From: a virus
Strand: one strand, 5' to 3'
DNA: 64,000 nucleotides
Virus record (IMG/VR): IMGVR_UViG_3300042317_001497
This document shows positions 36,054 to 45,320 of this stretch, piece by piece; the first letter of the stretch is position 1, and the number at the start of each line of letters is the position of its first letter. The translations under genes and the position numbers were made by a program. The notes under the pieces are model-generated. The model was not told where the DNA came from. It ran no database searches and saw only the letters and a list, made by a program, of their open reading frames with translations.

Positions 36054-36876
36054 TATTTTCCTCTAATACAGACTCTGGAGTTAAAAATGGCTTATCTATT
36101 ATATTATCTTCATAGGTATGGTATTCTTGTAGTTTGCTTTTACTTTTTTCAGTAGCTAATGACAAAATCTCCATTTCTCGTCCTTCTTTTTCTCTGATAG
36201 TTTCGTCTTCTAACATTCGTATTAAGCCTGTCCAGCTACTTTTCCCGTCCTCTATTCTTTTGATTCTTTGCTCTCTGGTAGCTTTTAAATCTTTACTAAT
36301 CTTCTGCTGCTCATTTAATAGTTTAGTATATTCATTAGTATAGTTAGCAATACTATTTCGTGCAAAACTTAATTGAGTTTCCATATTAGCAAGTTTGGGA
36401 ATGTCTCTGTCAGTTTCTACTTTTTCATATTCTTTGTCTACTAGTTTTTGTAATTTATCAGTTTCAGCAATATGTCTTTTTCTTTCTTTCATACTTCGAT
36501 TAATAAGAATATCTATAGTGATAAACTGTTTAATCTGAAGCTCTTCTGCTGGTAAAACGTCTTCACGAAACTGTTTAATAAGTCCAATCCAGGTATCTTC
36601 AAAATACGCTCTTTCTCCGTTATCATCATCAAACTGTCTGGTTATTTCGGGCCAAAATGTTTTGCTGTGTAATTTTTGTTTTAAAAATTCTTGGGTGCTT
36701 TTATCACTATCTGATATTAATAGTTTATTTTCTGTAATATATCTTTGAACAGGGGCGGTACTTCTATTTAGTGATGAAGCTATTTGTTCTACTGATAGCG
36801 AACCAAAATTTTCCCTTATATATTGTTCTTCATCTAAGCTTAATTGTCCTCTTTTTTTGGGGGCTGAATTTCCCAT
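36046..36876 (-). CDS. Hypothetical coiled-coil protein with N-terminal HTH (terminase small subunit candidate)
   Basis: 276 aa; LSVEQIASSLNRS N-terminus; located in the packaging module. Confidence 0.45.
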   Translation of the reverse strand: MGNSAPKKRGQLSLDEEQYIRENFGSLSVEQIASSLNRSTAPVQRYITENKLLISDSDKSTQEFLKQKLHSKTFWPEITRQFDDDNGERAYFEDTWIGLIKQFREDVLPAEELQIKQFITIDILINRSMKERKRHIAETDKLQKLVDKEYEKVETDRDIPKLANMETQLSFARNSIANYTNEYTKLLNEQQKISKDLKATREQRIKRIEDGKSSWTGLIRMLEDETIREKEGREMEILSLATEKSKSKLQEYHTYEDNIIDKPFLTPESVLEENNE

Positions 36877-37502
36877 TTTTTATTCTCCATTAATTGCGCA
36901 ATATGTTTTTGTAGTTTTATTAGTTGTTGTTTTGGAATATTGGAGCCGTGTTTTAATTTTAAATATGACTCTCTAAATTCTGACTGAATATTTTCATCTA
37001 AAAAAGATATAATTTCTTTATTCTGAATAAAATTGGTAGAATCAGATATTTGTAAATTAGGAATGGATAAATCTTGATCAATATGGGACGGTTGCATAAT
37101 GTTCTTTTTAGCTTCGTTTCTATTGGCCCATGCTGCATAAGGGGCACAATCATCTTTGTTTAAATATTTTGAACATTGATTGGTAGAACAAGCATAATTT
37201 TTATCAAATAGTGGACATGTTATGCAAGGTTTGTCGGGCCTTTGATAGTTATTTCTTTTGAAATTAAATAGTCTATTTCTCACATGGGTCCATAAAAAGT
37301 TTTCCAAGGGGCGACTACGATCATATTTTTGCAAACCTTCCATAGCAAATATGGCGGCTTGTTGTTTCATATCATCAAAATCATGGTATCCGAAACGAAA
37401 TTTATAACCCAATCTTTTGCTAATATTATCCAATACTATTAAAAATTCATCTTCAGTAACACCATTTGGTAAAATATCTTTATTCTTTTTCTTCTTGCTC
37501 AT
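36840..37502 (-). CDS. Sigma-70-family (region 2) phage sigma-like factor with Cys-rich insert
   Basis: DFDDMKQQAAIFAMEGLQKYD...LENFLWTHVRNRLFNFKR. Confidence 0.7.
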   Translation of the reverse strand: MSKKKKNKDILPNGVTEDEFLIVLDNISKRLGYKFRFGYHDFDDMKQQAAIFAMEGLQKYDRSRPLENFLWTHVRNRLFNFKRNNYQRPDKPCITCPLFDKNYACSTNQCSKYLNKDDCAPYAAWANRNEAKKNIMQPSHIDQDLSIPNLQISDSTNFIQNKEIISFLDENIQSEFRESYLKLKHGSNIPKQQLIKLQKHIAQLMENKKWEIQPPKKEDN

Positions 37503-39605: not shown

Positions 39606-39716
39606 TGGCTATTAAACTGGCTAATTATTTTATAGGGCCTGGACTATGTATGGACCACCCCAGGATTTGCGGAAATTCTGATGATATGATAAGTAAAACA
39701 AAAAAACCCCCTCTTC

Positions 39717-39798
39717 CCTAAACCTATGTGGCATAACAACTTAGGATCATTATACTCCGCAAAATTTTATGTAACTCCTTATGCCACAAGGATTTATG
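39717..39798. repeat. Double-palindrome element A1
   Basis: cctaaac-c-tat-gtggcat-aac-a-acttagg + 24 bp + tgtaact-c-ctt-atgccac-aag-g-atttatg. Confidence 0.75.
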
Positions 39799-39947
39799 AT
39801 GATTTTTGACGCAAAGACCGTGCTGCAAAAATTTTTCTCATTTGGCATGAAATTATATTCGAAAAATTGCAAAGATTTCTCTTGAAAGCGTCGATAAATA
39901 CTGTATAATTAAAGCACAAAGAGAACGATAACGCAAAGGACAAGAAA

Positions 39948-40163
39948 ATGAACAACAACGAAATCAAGCTGGGAGATGTGGTGGTGTGGAACTTTGTGTT
40001 TGACGTTCCGGAAGAGGATGGTGTTGTTGTAGGGTTGGACGGGGATAAAGTTCAAGTTGAGTATGTTGGATACATAATTGGTGGTGGTTCTAAGGTATGT
40101 CGGGAATGGCTGAACGTTGACGAAATCATGCTGGAATCGGAATACAATTCGCAGGTTTTCTAA
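39948..40163 (+). CDS. Small SH3-like hypothetical protein
   Basis: IKLGDVVVW...GVVVGLDGDKVQVEY; has its own promoter and RBS. Confidence 0.7.
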   Translation: MNNNEIKLGDVVVWNFVFDVPEEDGVVVGLDGDKVQVEYVGYIIGGGSKVCREWLNVDEIMLESEYNSQVF

Positions 40164-40227
40164 GGTATTGACAAACACTTAGCCGATAAACTATAATAGA
40201 ATCAACACAAGAGAAAAAGGAAAAGAA

Positions 40228-40377
40228 ATGACCATTCAAGTACAACACACCATTCGCCGCCTAGTTGCACATCATGGATATTCCGCAACATTTGTTCAGC
40301 ATATGGGCGAAGGCATTAGCCTCTATAGCATTGGTGGAATTATGTATCGTATTCGTGGCGATGGTACGATTCTCTAA
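40228..40377 (+). CDS. Small hypothetical protein (49 aa)
   Basis: Promoter 40168-40197, AAGG RBS, stop just before A2. Confidence 0.6.
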   Translation: MTIQVQHTIRRLVAHHGYSATFVQHMGEGISLYSIGGIMYRIRGDGTIL

Positions 40378-40384
40378 AACTTGA

Positions 40385-40466
40385 CGTAAACTCTTACTGC
40401 TAAACGACTTACGACGAACGCGGCCGCAAAAATTTGCTGTAAGTACTTACCATATATAGACTTAGG
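40385..40466. repeat. Double-palindrome element A2
   Basis: cgtaaactcttactgctaaacgacttacg + 24 bp + tgtaagtacttaccatatatagacttagg. Confidence 0.9.
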
Positions 40467-40608
40467 GCTAATATAATGTTTAAGAGAAAATATTCTTTTG
40501 TTTTGGCATGAAATTATATTTGAAAAATTCCAAAAATTTCGCTTGCAACCTAAAGAATACTCTGTATAATGTCGATATAAGAGAAAAGGGAACGATAAAG
40601 AAAAGGGA

Positions 40609-40836
40609 ATGAAAATGATCACGCTGAACACTGTTGCTGAACTGACCAACTTCCTGAACAACAACGATATGCCCTCTCTGGTTGGAGAGGTTGTTTTCGC
40701 TGGTGATCTTCTCAGCCATGTTCGATCTCTCAACAATGCCATCAGTATCGACGAGGAAATCGGGTTTTGCGATGATGGTGGGGAGATTGTGATTGACGAT
40801 AACGGTAACGTTGTGAGCGATATGTATCTTCCGTAA
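40609..40836 (+). CDS. Small acidic hypothetical protein
   Basis: 75 aa; promoter and purine-rich leader. Confidence 0.7.
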   Translation: MKMITLNTVAELTNFLNNNDMPSLVGEVVFAGDLLSHVRSLNNAISIDEEIGFCDDGGEIVIDDNGNVVSDMYLP

Positions 40837-40894
40837 GGGTATTGACAAGCAAAAATTGATAGGTATAATAGGAAGAAAGAAAGAGAGAAAGAAA

Positions 40895-41044
40895 ATGCAG
40901 TTTGCTCTTGGTGATAAGGTGAAGGTTGACGGTAGGCTTGGACAGATCATTCTCTGGCATTTCGATGAGGGGAATATCTGGCACGTTGAGATTGACGGGG
41001 ATGAGTATGAGTGCTACGATGAGGATATGGAATTGATTTCCTAA
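40895..41044 (+). CDS. Small SH3-like acidic protein
   Basis: MQFALGDKVKVDGRLGQI...; has its own promoter. Confidence 0.65.
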   Translation: MQFALGDKVKVDGRLGQIILWHFDEGNIWHVEIDGDEYECYDEDMELIS

Positions 41045-41195
41045 AGAGGTAATAAGAATGTTTCTCACGTTTGACGATTTTTTGTTGTTGGGTGGTTTGC
41101 TCAGTTTTTGTGCTTTTATCACCTATACTGTGCATGAGGTGGGTAACGCTATCCGTTCTATGCTGGACATGGACAACTAAGCAAAGGAAAAGAAG

Positions 41196-41492
41196 ATGAA
41201 TCACTGTGAAGCTGTTAAGATGGTGAAGGGAAAGGGTAATAAGAATACCCGTAAGGTGGGCAACAATACCTATGCGGAAATTCTTCCTGATGGTAGCGTG
41301 GGCATTATGCTACATAGTACCTATGTTGTTAAAATTCATCCCGACAATAGTGCTACCCTCAATACTGGGGGATGGTATACTAGCACCACGAAGGATCGAA
41401 TCAACAAGTATTCGCCCGTGCGTGTGTATCAAAAAAGGGGTGAATGGTATCTGAACAACGGTACACCATATGAGGATGGTATGGTGGTGTGA
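41196..41492 (+). CDS. Hypothetical protein
   Basis: 98 aa; LHSTYVV...TLNTGGWYTSTTKDRIN pattern. Confidence 0.75.
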   Translation: MNHCEAVKMVKGKGNKNTRKVGNNTYAEILPDGSVGIMLHSTYVVKIHPDNSATLNTGGWYTSTTKDRINKYSPVRVYQKRGEWYLNNGTPYEDGMVV

Positions 41493-41522
41493 ACATCTGT
41501 ACGCTACTATACAAAAAATAGA

Positions 41523-41604
41523 CGTAAAGCCTTGACCCTAAACGACTTAGGGCGAGGCGGGCCGGCCCGGCTCGACGTAAGTACTTATGCCACAAGGGTT
41601 TATG
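41523..41604. repeat. Double-palindrome element A3
   Basis: cgtaaagccttgaccctaaacgacttagg + 24 bp + cgtaagtacttatgccacaagggtttatg. Confidence 0.9.
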
Positions 41605-41734
41605 GCAAGTTTTGACGCAAGTGCTGTGCCACAAAATATTTTCTCATTTGGCATGAAATTATATTTGAAATTTCTCAAGATTTTGCTTGAAAGCGTCGAA
41701 TATATCTGTATAATGAAAGCACAGGAGAAAAACG

Positions 41735-41908
41735 ATGGAAAAGATGATTGACGAAAACGGCGAAGAATGGGTCGTGGGTTATGGAGAGGATGACGTTATG
41801 GATTTCGACGATTATTCGTGGGATCCGATCATGGGTGATGCCGATGAGCACATCGAAACGGACGATGAGTGGCTGGACGATTTTCAGGGTGAAGAAGAAT
41901 TTGCTTGA
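41735..41908 (+). CDS. Very acidic mini-protein (57 aa)
   Basis: MEKMIDENGEEWVVGYGEDDVMDFDDYSWD...; GGAG RBS. Confidence 0.7.
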   Translation: MEKMIDENGEEWVVGYGEDDVMDFDDYSWDPIMGDADEHIETDDEWLDDFQGEEEFA

Positions 41909-42157
41909 AAGGAAAATGGTATGCTAGGGGCTATCCTGTTCGTGCTTTCATACATTGGACTTTTTTACGTTTGCGTGACTTGCAAGGAATAAAAAGGTAT
42001 AAGAATGAAAAACTGGATCTGCTACAATTTGTTTGGTGAGCATCCCGATGATGTGGACGCTTTCGGAATGATTAGTGGCTTGGGTATTCAAGCGTTTCTA
42101 ATCGGTTGGGCCGTCTATCTTTTTGTTTACGTTCCCTTCTTTTACTTTGGATGAAAA

Positions 42158-42334
42158 ATGAATATCTCTCAACTAAGCAAATGTACAGTACAAACCGCTT
42201 TAAGGATTGAGCAAATTCGTTTGCAATATGCTTTGAGCGAATCGGATAAAGAAAATATTAAAAATAGTATTAAGGAATTGTGTGCTGAACTACTGTATAG
42301 GTGGAAAAACGAGTTGCAAAACCTTAGCCCATAA
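42158..42334 (+). CDS. Small hypothetical protein (58 aa); stop lies inside A4
   Basis: MNISQLSKCTVQTALRIEQ...NELQNLSP. Confidence 0.5.
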   Translation: MNISQLSKCTVQTALRIEQIRLQYALSESDKENIKNSIKELCAELLYRWKNELQNLSP

Positions 42335-42396
42335 GGAGTTACGACAAATTTTCGCCGCAAAATTTTCCCTAAGTACTTATGTACCAATAACTTACG
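42315..42396. repeat. Double-palindrome element A4
   Basis: tgcaaaaccttagcccataaggagttacg + 24 bp + cctaagtacttatgtaccaataacttacg. Confidence 0.85.
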
Positions 42397-42559
42397 ATAA
42401 GTTTTGACGCATATCGTATGCCAAAGCAAAATATTCTTTTTTGGCACGATATTCGCTGTGAGAAACCTTACGACATTGTAAGGAAACTACCAAAGATTTC
42501 GCTTGAAACCCAAAGAAAACTCTGTATAATGTCGGTATAAGAAGAAAGAGAGAAAGAAA

Positions 42560-42889
42560 ATGAAAACCAAGTTCCCTATCGTCGAAAACGCCAAGCGTCA
42601 AGCCAGACTGTGCTTCCTCGGGATTGCGATTCCTCACCAACCGTCCCTTGCGGATGGGGTGTATGGCCCGATCCGTAGTGAGAAGGTGCTGAAGTTCAAT
42701 CGCAAAGCCCTAAAGAATCTGGGCAAGATTCGCAAGGAAAAGGCTGATCCCCGCCTTGTTGGGGGTGAGGATCGCATGATTGTAAAGGTTGGCAAGCCGG
42801 GTTCGGCCGAAAGGGTTGCTGCTCTGGAGTCGCAATATGCCGCGATTCTTGCTTGTGGAGAGGAAGTATCCCCCTTTTCGGAGGGGTGA
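42560..42889 (+). CDS. Hypothetical protein
   Basis: 109 aa; promoter and purine-rich leader. Confidence 0.75.
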   Translation: MKTKFPIVENAKRQARLCFLGIAIPHQPSLADGVYGPIRSEKVLKFNRKALKNLGKIRKEKADPRLVGGEDRMIVKVGKPGSAERVAALESQYAAILACGEEVSPFSEG

Positions 42890-42917
42890 TCTTCTGTACA
42901 CTGTACAAAAAACTCGA

Positions 42918-42999
42918 CGTAAAGCCTTGCAGCATAAGGACTTACGGCGAATTTTTGCGGCCGAGCTTGACGTAAGTACTTATATACCAACGACTTACG
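42918..42999. repeat. Double-palindrome element A5
   Basis: cgtaaagccttgcagcataaggacttacg + 24 bp + cgtaagtacttatataccaacgacttacg. Confidence 0.9.
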
Positions 43000-43173
43000 T
43001 TCAATGCTTATATATTAGGCGTTTCTGCCTATATTCTGATCACTAGCAAATCCTGTGCCAAACTTGCTTCTCCAACCTTACAGCATTGTAAGGAAACTTT
43101 TTCTGATCTAGGCTATTGACATTGGACGATAATACTGGTATAATGATAGCACAAGAAAGAAAGAGAGAGAAAG

Positions 43174-43380
43174 ATGAATAGCAATATGATTGCAAAAGAG
43201 TTGAAGAAGTTGGGCTATACGCTGAAGAAGACTTCGGACATCGAAGCCCGTTGGATGGTCAGTTCTGACGTTCTCACCTACCATTGGGATTTCAAGGATT
43301 TGAAGGGTGTTCAGCGGTTCATGACCGATGAGCGAGCGTTGTATCGATATGCCAAAGCGAACGGTGCGACCACCCGATAG
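43174..43380 (+). CDS. Hypothetical protein
   Basis: 68 aa; promoter and leader. Confidence 0.7.
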   Translation: MNSNMIAKELKKLGYTLKKTSDIEARWMVSSDVLTYHWDFKDLKGVQRFMTDERALYRYAKANGATTR

Positions 43381-43440
43381 TGGGGGTTGACGATCAGAAA
43401 AAACTTCGCTAGAATACCAACACAAGAAAGAGAGAACAGA

Positions 43441-43653
43441 ATGATTCAGATTGGTGATAGGGTTCAGGTTGGTTCAAGGATTGGTGTTGATCTGGCGTGG
43501 GCTGTGGTGGTGAACATCCTGCCAGCAATCGGGGACAGGGTAGCTATGTATTGTGTTCGGTTCGATGCCACTACCTCGAAACTGAATGAGTGCTGGGTGG
43601 ATGAGGGTATTGTGTATGGTCCGTTTCTTGATCAAAACTTTGGATGGAATTGA
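43441..43653 (+). CDS. Small SH3-like protein
   Basis: MIQIGDRVQV...VVVNIL...YCVRFD; start reassigned to ATG 43441. Confidence 0.65.
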   Translation: MIQIGDRVQVGSRIGVDLAWAVVVNILPAIGDRVAMYCVRFDATTSKLNECWVDEGIVYGPFLDQNFGWN

Positions 43654-43665
43654 AAGGCTATACAA

Positions 43666-43851
43666 ATGTTCTCACCGATGGAAAAAATTTGGATGAGCCT
43701 TGGCTTGCAAGGTGCTTTGGAAATGATGGACGCATCATGTTCTCTGGCCGAAAGGCTCACGGAAGAATGCGTGACTAATCCGGCAGTGAAAGATGCTCTA
43801 ATTCGAAGCATTGCTGCTGAAATTATAGGCAGTCGCCAAAGTATCTCCTAA
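43666..43851 (+). CDS. Hypothetical protein; TAA stop is part of A6
   Basis: 61 aa. Confidence 0.65.
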   Translation: MFSPMEKIWMSLGLQGALEMMDASCSLAERLTEECVTNPAVKDALIRSIAAEIIGSRQSIS

Positions 43852-43928
43852 GTGCTTGCTATATAAAGACTTACGACAAACGGGGCGCGCCGGGCTTGAT
43901 GTAAGTACTTACCCCATAAGACTTTACG
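43847..43928. repeat. Double-palindrome element A6
   Basis: cctaagtgcttgctatataaagacttacg + 24 bp + tgtaagtacttaccccataagactttacg. Confidence 0.9.
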
Positions 43929-44084
43929 ACAACTTAGCAAATGGTGTGCCAAACCTCCACGAAATTACGAAAAGTTTTGTCAAAATCTTTTGACAATAAA
44001 ATTTCTGGATTTCTCTTGAAAGCTCAAGATGAGCATGGTATAATGTCGATATAAGAAGAAAGAAGAAAAGAAAGAGAGAAAAAA

Positions 44085-44246
44085 ATGGAATATCTGGATT
44101 ACGATCTGATGTCCGATTGCTGCGGTTCTGGTGTGGGCTTTCAAACCGGTGAGGGTGAGGACCGAATCGGAATTTGTATGGAGTGTCAAGACTGGTGTGG
44201 TGTGGTGGAAGATATTCCGGAAGATGAGGCCGCTAGTCTCAGCTAA
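44085..44246 (+). CDS. Acidic Cys-containing mini-protein (53 aa); stop lies inside repeat B1
   Basis: MEYLDYDLMSDCCGSG...ICMECQDWC... Confidence 0.7.
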   Translation: MEYLDYDLMSDCCGSGVGFQTGEGEDRIGICMECQDWCGVVEDIPEDEAASLS

Positions 44247-44653
44247 TCCTGCGGATTTGGGCAAGCTGGGTATAGTCAGCAAGCTAGGGGAACCTTTCAA
44301 TATTGCAAGAAAATTTTCTAGTTGACAACTAAAGATTAGACTGTAGAATGTCGATATAAGAAGAAAGAGGAAAAAAGAAATGAAAACTTCACATCAAAAA
44401 GCTGTTGAAAGAATGGATCGGGAAACTAACCGTGCTATTAAACAGGTTAAGTTGTTGGAAAAACTCTATCTGGAAATGATGCAGAAGAAAGAGAAGGTTG
44501 GTAAATGACCACTATTATTATCATAAACGCTTGGATTTTTACCATCCTTGCTATGTATGCTTTTGCTAACGTGGCTTTCTGGTTGTTTGCTCAGGCTTTT
44601 GGTGTTGTTGATAATTATCTGCAAAATCAGTATTGGAAGAATAAGGAATAAAA

Positions 44654-44884
44654 ATGATTACTGTTGAACAAATTAGAGAATTGACCGATACTTACCTTGA
44701 GGGTTGTGAGGTTACTATTACCCGTTCGGGTTGTGGTTGGTCTACCCCTTGTGGTTGGCAAGTTTCTATTATTAGTGATATTCCCGGCGATCAGCATACA
44801 ATTTATTTGCGTGATGATAATACTGTGGATTCTGCTTGGTCTAAGATTACTACTCTTGCGGATAATGCTTTGAACCCCGCATAA
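44654..44884 (+). CDS. Hypothetical protein
   Basis: 76 aa with AAGGA RBS. Confidence 0.65.
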   Translation: MITVEQIRELTDTYLEGCEVTITRSGCGWSTPCGWQVSIISDIPGDQHTIYLRDDNTVDSAWSKITTLADNALNPA

Positions 44885-45090
44885 TTAAAGAAAGGCGACA
44901 CGGATGGTCGATATTAACTGGGTGCAAATAGGTGTGGGATTTATTGCTGGCGTGTTGTGTTCTTGGTTTGTTTCTGATTTGGTTTTTTATGTAAGGAATA
45001 GTGAGGATAGCCATGATTAATTCGGATTCTATTATTCTGACCATTTCTTTTGTGGCTGGTTGCTTGGTTGCTTGGATTGTAAATTCTTAA

Positions 45091-45172
45091 CGCAAACCCT
45101 TGCCCTATAAAGACTTAGGGCAAACCGGGGCGGCCCCGCGAATCGTAACTCCTTTGATAGCATAGACTTACG
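45091..45172. repeat. Double-palindrome element A7
   Basis: cgcaaacccttgccctataaagacttagg + 24 bp + cgtaactcctttgatagcatagacttacg. Confidence 0.9.
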
Positions 45173-45320
45173 ACAAGCATTGACGCAAAAGCTGTGCCAC
45201 AAAAATATTTCCCGTTTGGCACAGAATTATATTTGAAAAATTCCAAAGATTTCGCTTGCATTGGCCGATAAACACTGTAGAATGACAGCATCACAAGGGA
45301 AACCACTAAGGGAAATACCA

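Follow-up and report, generated by a model that had tools for sequence, protein, structure and literature searches.

The window described here is a 64,000-nucleotide stretch of DNA from an uncultured lake-water phage (IMG/VR record IMGVR_UViG_3300042317_001497, 37% GC), in which perfect and degenerate copies of the motif TGGCAC-N5-TTGC lie beside double palindromes that separate small early genes. The best explanation is that these motifs are -24/-12 elements of the sigma-54 (RpoN) class, forming a second promoter class beside the host sigma-70 early promoters, and that the orphan (enhancer-less) copies of the window are conditional antisense promoters, a reading to which we give slightly better than even odds (about 0.55). 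The motif probably represents a real second promoter class of this lake-phage group: it is conserved in related phages, where it occupies promoter position and has an enhancer layout upstream. An earlier note, made from the letters of the window, had already named RpoN as the reader of the motif. That identification becomes far stronger through the promoter position and the NtrC-style dyads of the relatives, and is held back by window copies that have no enhancer and by a phage family in which no sigma-54 or activator ATPase is recognised.

The structural genes of the phage run leftward from about 37.5 kb, and many small genes run rightward from 38.4 kb, each behind a near-consensus sigma-70 promoter. 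These early genes are separated by 17 double-palindrome elements (A1-A17). The same phage is also present on a 189-kb metagenome contig, and the material of it examined here comprises the 64-kb window plus 19 kb past the window end, 83 kb in total. All 24 sequencing runs listed for the phage are lake or freshwater DNA, with no RNA run among them. IMG/VR contains many relatives, among them two complete genomes (229 and 223 kb). L-numbers denote loci of related phages, and G001, G002 and G003 are related phage genome records.

Motif copies in the window

The exact consensus is enriched over shuffled sequence: TGGCAC-N5-TTGC has four matches in the window, where 0.09 are expected, and none of 100 shuffles reached four. 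The four span 41.6 to 45.2 kb, and each is on the minus strand. The count with one mismatch allowed is not significant alone (5 versus 2.25 expected). GG and GC are exactly 10 bp apart in the four exact copies, and three more copies retain GG or GC. The positions reported earlier for the four exact copies and the near-matches are borne out, apart from 16-mers that were one base too long, and so is the confinement of the module to units A1-A7, since no copy is found elsewhere in the window, the late-gene region included. The 19 kb past the window end contain no further copies. The elements and the features around them are as follows.

41617-41631, minus strand: exact -24/-12 element of A3, TGGCACagcacTTGC; predicted +1 at 41605, with a 12-nt gap to the right palindrome ending at 41604
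43046-43060, minus strand: exact element of A5, TGGCACaggatTTGC(TA); predicted +1 at 43034, 35 nt from the palindrome
43937-43951, minus strand: exact element of A6, TGGCACaccatTTGC(TA); predicted +1 at 43925, within the palindrome arm
45185-45199, minus strand: exact element of A7, TGGCACagcttTTGC; predicted +1 at 45173
42409-42423, minus strand: degenerate antisense element of A4, TGGCATacgatATGC, with GG and GC retained; predicted +1 at 42397
42442-42456, plus strand: sense element of A4, TGGCACgatatTCGC; predicted +1 near 42468, upstream of the sigma-70 promoter at 42503-42530
39811-39825, minus strand: decayed copy of A1, CAGCACggtctTTGC, with the -24 GG broken; predicted +1 at 39799
39842-39857, plus strand: partner element TTGGCATgaaatTATA, -24-like and without the -12 GC; more copies at 40503-40518, 41648-41663 and 45216-45231
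41575-41604, no strand assigned: right palindrome of A3, faced by the antisense element; equivalents at 39769-39798, 42367-42396, 42970-42999, 43899-43928 and 45143-45172
41612-41640, plus strand: weak sigma-70-like site (TTGACG-17-AATATT, 9/12 matches) overlapping the element; also at 42404-42432 and 45180-45209

Seven of the 17 units carry anything at all, and A2 has the partner element only. The five antisense copies (A3-A7) face the end of the upstream cassette and not a gene, and the one sense copy, at 42442, lies upstream of a sigma-70 promoter. The partner element stands back to back with the antisense element across a common AAAATATTTT tract; as a 24-mer it occurs exactly in 14 viral contigs, whether the antisense element is present or not.

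It had also been proposed that transcription from these elements would start at the palindrome edge. This is exact in A1, A3, A4 and A7, where 12 nt between the C of the GC and the end of the right palindrome place the predicted +1 at 39799, 41605, 42397 and 45173. However, one 146-nt module (family D4) recurs in A1, A3 and A7, and A4 has their TTTTGACGCA junction, so the four 12-nt registers are not independent events. The gap is 8 nt in A6 and 46 nt in A5, while in relatives the offset is kept at 12-13 nt in some cases and is 8 or 4-5 nt in others; the edge start is thus a property of one repeated module and not a general one. In G003 (L018, 9250-14400) the boundary palindromes are CTGCCATTTTGGCAG instead of the CGTAAG...CTTACG type, and the sigma-54-type element is still 4-5 nt away.

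Conservation in related phages

In five related phage records the pattern TGGCAY-N5-TTGC has 15 matches, versus none for a reversed control pattern. Across 42 distinct intergenic copies from relatives the half-sites and the GG-N10-GC spacing are invariant and the five middle bases are free. The extended sigma-54 consensus is also followed at positions outside the selection, with a purine at -20 in 42/42 copies, T at -16 in 86% and T at -28 in 81%; T at -15 is found in 90%, at a position where the selection pattern had already excluded G. The published consensus is TGGCAC-N5-TTGCW (PMC12316311).

Orthologues of individual window copies show the same pattern. Those of A7 in L003 and L006 keep both half-sites with a changed middle (AGCTT in A7, AAGCT in L006), and we read such a variable middle between kept boxes as the footprint of a bipartite protein-binding site. 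The A6 orthologue lies at L009 9504-9518 on the minus strand. For A4, the antisense orthologue in L006 reads TGGCATatgatATGC, and sense orthologues with a perfect TTGC are found at L006 6432 and L009 6982. An intact class-I copy with the middle bases of A1, TGGCACagtctTTGC, occupies L006 3308-3322 on the minus strand. Relatives also have single sense copies between palindrome and promoter, as well as tandem copies spaced by 26 and 35 bp. Roughly counted, some two thirds of the copies outside the promoter-position class are antisense to early genes. At L001 3950-4100 (also in L004 and L008) three copies (one pointing left, and two pointing right at 35 bp from each other) stand beside a AATCCTAAC-like repeat run.

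Probable sense promoters and enhancer dyads in relatives

Fifteen sense copies stand directly before a gene in 14 loci of relatives (L175 and L177 hold the same copy). Their layout is an A/T tract, TGGCAC-N5-(G/C/T)TGC, ATnTATATA-GG, the usual early leader ATAAGAAAGAGAG and ATG. By inspection, neither a sigma-70 -35 box nor a TAnnnT -10 box is present between these copies and the leader in relatives, the gap from TTGGCA to TATATA being 13-15 bp, where sigma-70 hexamers are 16-18 bp apart. Reading the motif as a sigma-70 promoter is rejected on these grounds, as the window offers only weak 9/12 rightward overlaps and the relatives' sense copies have no TAnnnT. Taking the C of the GC as -12, the predicted +1 of the sense copies falls, by our reading, within a few bases of the sigma-70 unit starts.

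Upstream of 18 sense promoters, including most of the 15 copies, are two to three dyads TGTWGCAAAATGCTACA. The dyad is 17 bp long (6-N5-6), and its centres lie at stereotyped distances, 70-144 nt upstream of TGGCAC, or about 95-170 bp upstream of the predicted start. In a blind scan of the viral collection for dyad pairs, 21 clusters had the motif (at least 9/10 bases) at a distance of 60-140 nt and directed away from the dyads, and none had it in the control orientation. Enhancer-dependent sigma-54 promoters typically have activator sites about 80-150 bp upstream, and we take the combination of dyads, A/T tract and -24/-12 element to be their standard layout.

In L229, L150 and L130 an antisense element beside the right palindrome and a sense element flank one dyad cluster, giving a divergent pair around a single enhancer. 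The A5 copy of the window, TAGCAAATCCTGTGCCAAA, is identical to the antisense member in L150 and homologous to that in L229, and the A6 copy, TAGCAAATGGTGTGCCAAA, differs at three middle bases only. The complete relative G001 has two orphan copies and no dyad pair, which indicates that orphan copies persist in enhancer-less genomes; G002 has one enhancer. Since no dyad cluster is found in the 83 kb examined, the window copies are orphan sites. New here are the architecture of the enhancer and the derivation of the orphan copies: the kind of element is known, while its place and arrangement are unusual.

Proposed mechanism

In the full module, as found in relatives, two to three activator dyads would lie between two diverging -24/-12 elements, one driving the early gene and the other firing backward into the double palindrome at the end of the preceding cassette. 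In the phage of the window, the enhancer and the sense element would have been replaced by ordinary sigma-70 promoters, leaving orphan elements, five of them antisense. We infer that host sigma-54 polymerase most probably still forms a closed complex on these antisense or insulating promoters, and that an activator reaching them could cause leftward starts at or just inside the right palindrome. The outcome would be conditional antisense transcription that runs against the last part of the upstream cassette and may affect it.

When sigma-54 polymerase binds a promoter it does so in an inactive state, and E. coli has many orphan, intragenic and antisense sites; bound sites there left the expression of overlapped genes unchanged (PMC4591121). 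As the bound E. coli sites are no measurable roadblock, we would place conditional antisense firing first, a pure block or sponge second and relics last. The roadblock proposed in the earlier note is weakened by the same observation, and retains in its favour that closed complexes are stable without an activator (PMC4591121).

As to what reads the motif, five related phage records, of which two are complete, yielded neither a sigma-54 domain (DNA-binding or core-binding) nor an enhancer-binding ATPase. A weak Sigma54_activat match in relatives was rejected as an enhancer-binding protein, since by inspection, made with no family scan, its sequence motifs look like those of RuvB. Given that no phage sigma-54 or activator is recognised and that the sigma-70-family gene of the phage is unfit (the motif is absent from the late region and has the wrong geometry), the predicted reader must be host sigma-54 polymerase with a host activator, or else another unrecognised factor.

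Relation to known systems

The phage elements resemble enhancer-dependent bacterial sigma-54 promoters, for example glnAp2 with its NtrC sites, in having GG and GC 10 bp apart, in fitting the extended consensus and, in the relatives, in having two to three 6-N5-6 dyads about 95-170 bp upstream with an A/T-rich tract between. The dyad agrees at 4/6 bases per half-site with what we take to be the NtrC consensus, TGCACC-N5-GGTGCA, and we know of no activator site that matches its sequence. Unlike glnAp2, the elements lie among the early genes of a large phage that appears to be lytic and in whose relatives sigma-54 and its activator are not found, and the window copies have no enhancer and face away from genes.

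A second likeness is to the orphan, intragenic and antisense sigma-54 sites of E. coli and Salmonella, which have a good consensus and are bound in an inactive state; many of them are antisense or far from gene starts, lack a known activator and are conserved between species (PMC4591121; PMC3844500). The phage copies differ from these in being intergenic, beside a repeated boundary element, within 5.4 kb, and in deriving from a recognisable divergent promoter module.

Two phage systems offer parallels in function. In phage lambda, paQ is a CII-activated antisense promoter inside gene Q, and as an activator-dependent phage promoter that damps an upstream gene it is a functional model for the antisense copies; unlike them, it is a sigma-70 promoter with TTGC-N6-TTGC activator sites and a link to lysogeny, and there is no sequence relation. 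The middle promoters of T4, with their MotA box, likewise form a second promoter class, interspersed among early promoters of host type in an early region that is cassette-like. T4, however, remodels sigma-70 via AsiA and MotA, whereas here the geometry is that of sigma-54 and no phage factor is identified.

In the searchable literature, where sigma-54 promoters are a feature of bacterial chromosomes, we came across no lytic phage described as basing part of its early programme on them. If the reading is true, a widespread lake-phage group ties some of its early genes to a host signalling ATPase, coupling infection to the physiological state of the host, and uses the same promoter class backward at cassette borders. 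The enhancer dyad would be a concrete handle on the host and the activator, and the orphan copies would be a compact natural system for a question open in E. coli, namely the purpose of enhancer-less sigma-54 sites.

Evidence against and alternative explanations

Several results weigh against conditional sigma-54 promoters. The putative antisense RNAs do not fold consistently better than shuffles (z from -0.2 to -3.4), the A1 copy is decayed, the dyad cluster is missing from the window and the 19 kb beyond it, and the family has no recognised sigma-54 or activator gene. In relatives the motif occurs in both orientations, in tandem and in convergent pairs just 4-5 bp apart, which is odd for promoters. 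The clues to the host conflict. The tRNA(UAA) of relatives is split after U34 by a group I intron (L109:1464-1740 in G001; also in G002; Rfam 56.6 bits) with a core of cyanobacterial type, matching 24/301 Cyanobacteriota genomes versus 1/301 of Planctomycetota, and sigma-54 is found in just 3/301 Cyanobacteriota genomes, in line with a report that Cyanobacteria almost never have it (PMC12316311).

If the host has no RpoN, being a cyanobacterium or some other such bacterium, something other than sigma-54 could read the motif: a phage or host DNA-binding protein, or a host polymerase modified by the phage, with the dyads as sites of its partner. We regard this as unlikely, with real points in its favour. 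Beside the cyanobacterial type of the tRNA intron and the near absence of sigma-54 from Cyanobacteriota, the tandem and convergent copies resemble operator arrays more than promoters, and a divergent gene of the sigma-70 family is encoded by the phage itself (36840-37502). Its 37% GC and very long tape-measure gene presumably also resemble those of long-tailed siphophages of filamentous cyanobacteria. However, a chance match to ten consensus bases together with the extended positions, the spacing and the enhancer geometry is very improbable, the motif is absent from the late-gene region, where a phage sigma should act, and psbA, hli and nblA were not found in relatives. To our knowledge, sigma-70-family factors do not use a 5-bp gap between two elements. 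There is also a form of this idea, very unlikely in our judgement, in which the host (a cyanobacterium or other) lacks sigma-54 and the phage brings or redirects an unrecognised -24/-12 factor and a dyad-binding activator, which would make this a sigma-54-style system that arose independently or has diverged beyond recognition.

The remaining alternatives concern what the window copies do. It is quite unlikely that they are non-functional relics, left when the enhancer and sense promoter of a divergent module were swapped for sigma-70 promoters. The missing dyad cluster, the lost GG of A1, the degeneracy of both A4 copies, the lone partner element of A2 and the ten empty units would all fit decay, but four copies are perfect, and orthologues in the enhancer-less L003, L006 and G001 keep half-sites and spacing while middle and flanks change, which points to selection on the site itself. 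We see a slim chance that sigma-54 polymerase is bound and never fires, being either parked as a block to rightward transcription past the palindromes or titrated away from host genes by a sponge of sites as phage DNA multiplies. In favour of this, a closed complex needs no activator to be stable, and sigma-54 is able to repress promoters that overlap its sites (PMC4591121). In most units the site follows the right palindrome at a distance of 4-13 nt, in A3, A4 and A7 it overlaps the weak rightward sigma-70-like site, and a function independent of orientation fits the mixed orientations. On the other hand, intragenic bound sites in E. coli left the expression of overlapped genes unchanged (PMC4591121), a minority of units carry a site, and as a sponge the 5-10 sites per genome would be weak until late replication. 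Finally, it is highly improbable that the motif is incidental to a plus-strand feature, whether as the spacer of a weak sigma-70 promoter or as the left half of a TGCCA-N17-TGGCA operator. The 9/12 matches at 41612, 42404 and 45180 do point rightward, and TGCCA and TGGCA face each other in A1, A3, A4 and A7; yet the conservation is not expected of spacer sequence, and the -35-like and -10-like parts vary among relatives. The inverted-repeat operator, which the earlier note had named as what would overturn its proposal, is rejected: TGCCA and TGGCA are separated by 15, 17 or 18 nt, and either half can be found by itself (the partner is missing from A5 and A6, and stands alone in A2, L002, L007, L009, L011, L012 and L013).

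Host clues

Apart from the intron, the composition of the early promoters bears on the host. The sigma-28 (FliA) -10 consensus GCCGATAA occurs 11 times on the plus strand of the window and once on the minus strand, where by our estimate fewer than one per strand is expected, and this enrichment suggests a flagellated host with both FliA and RpoN, against a cyanobacterial one. Nine of the copies are in the spacers of sigma-70 early promoters (plus strand; 40182, 45264, 45522, 47943, 50967, 53027, 54144, 55094 and 56345). Most copies have T(A/C)AAG 16-17 nt upstream and may be a nested second promoter.

Other searches gave little. There was no DNA match in the phage collection and no match for the portal protein, and the terminase is just about 24% identical to those of Microcystis phage MaeS and Bacillus phages. 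A scan of genomes for GDP-mannose dehydratase was uninformative on the host. When 20 kb of the window were compared with 401 Cyanobacteriota genomes, the matches listed were stretches of conserved enzymes, with none spacer-like among them. The Atlas search found viral clusters only, Pfam does not detect a planctomycete signal motif, and the dyad-pair pattern is at chance level in 301 Planctomycetota genomes. The tRNA(UAA) of G001 and G002 has, by our reading of the sequence, a short variable arm, unlike a normal tRNA-Leu.

Other features

The sigma-70-family gene at 36840-37502 (minus strand) heads the leftward late genes, and only region 2 of its product is recognisable; the G002 homologue is 60% identical and has a cysteine-rich middle part. 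Runs of 5-7 A precede the left palindrome only in A1, A3, A4 and A5 (39690-39719, 41497-41525, 42290-42317 and 42893-42920). On the minus strand these would be a U-run after a hairpin, a possible stop for leftward transcripts, though the mutual homology of the flanks makes the lead a weak one. At 42466-42483 and 43076-43093, between the sigma-54-type element and the sigma-70 promoter that follows it, there is a CCTTAC-N6-GTAAGG hairpin, which is kept for either orientation of the element. A perfect dyad, TTGTCAAAA-TC-TTTTGACAA, is found at 43967-43986, about 30 bp upstream of the -35 box of the A6 promoter, and in relatives it is conserved beside convergent motif pairs.

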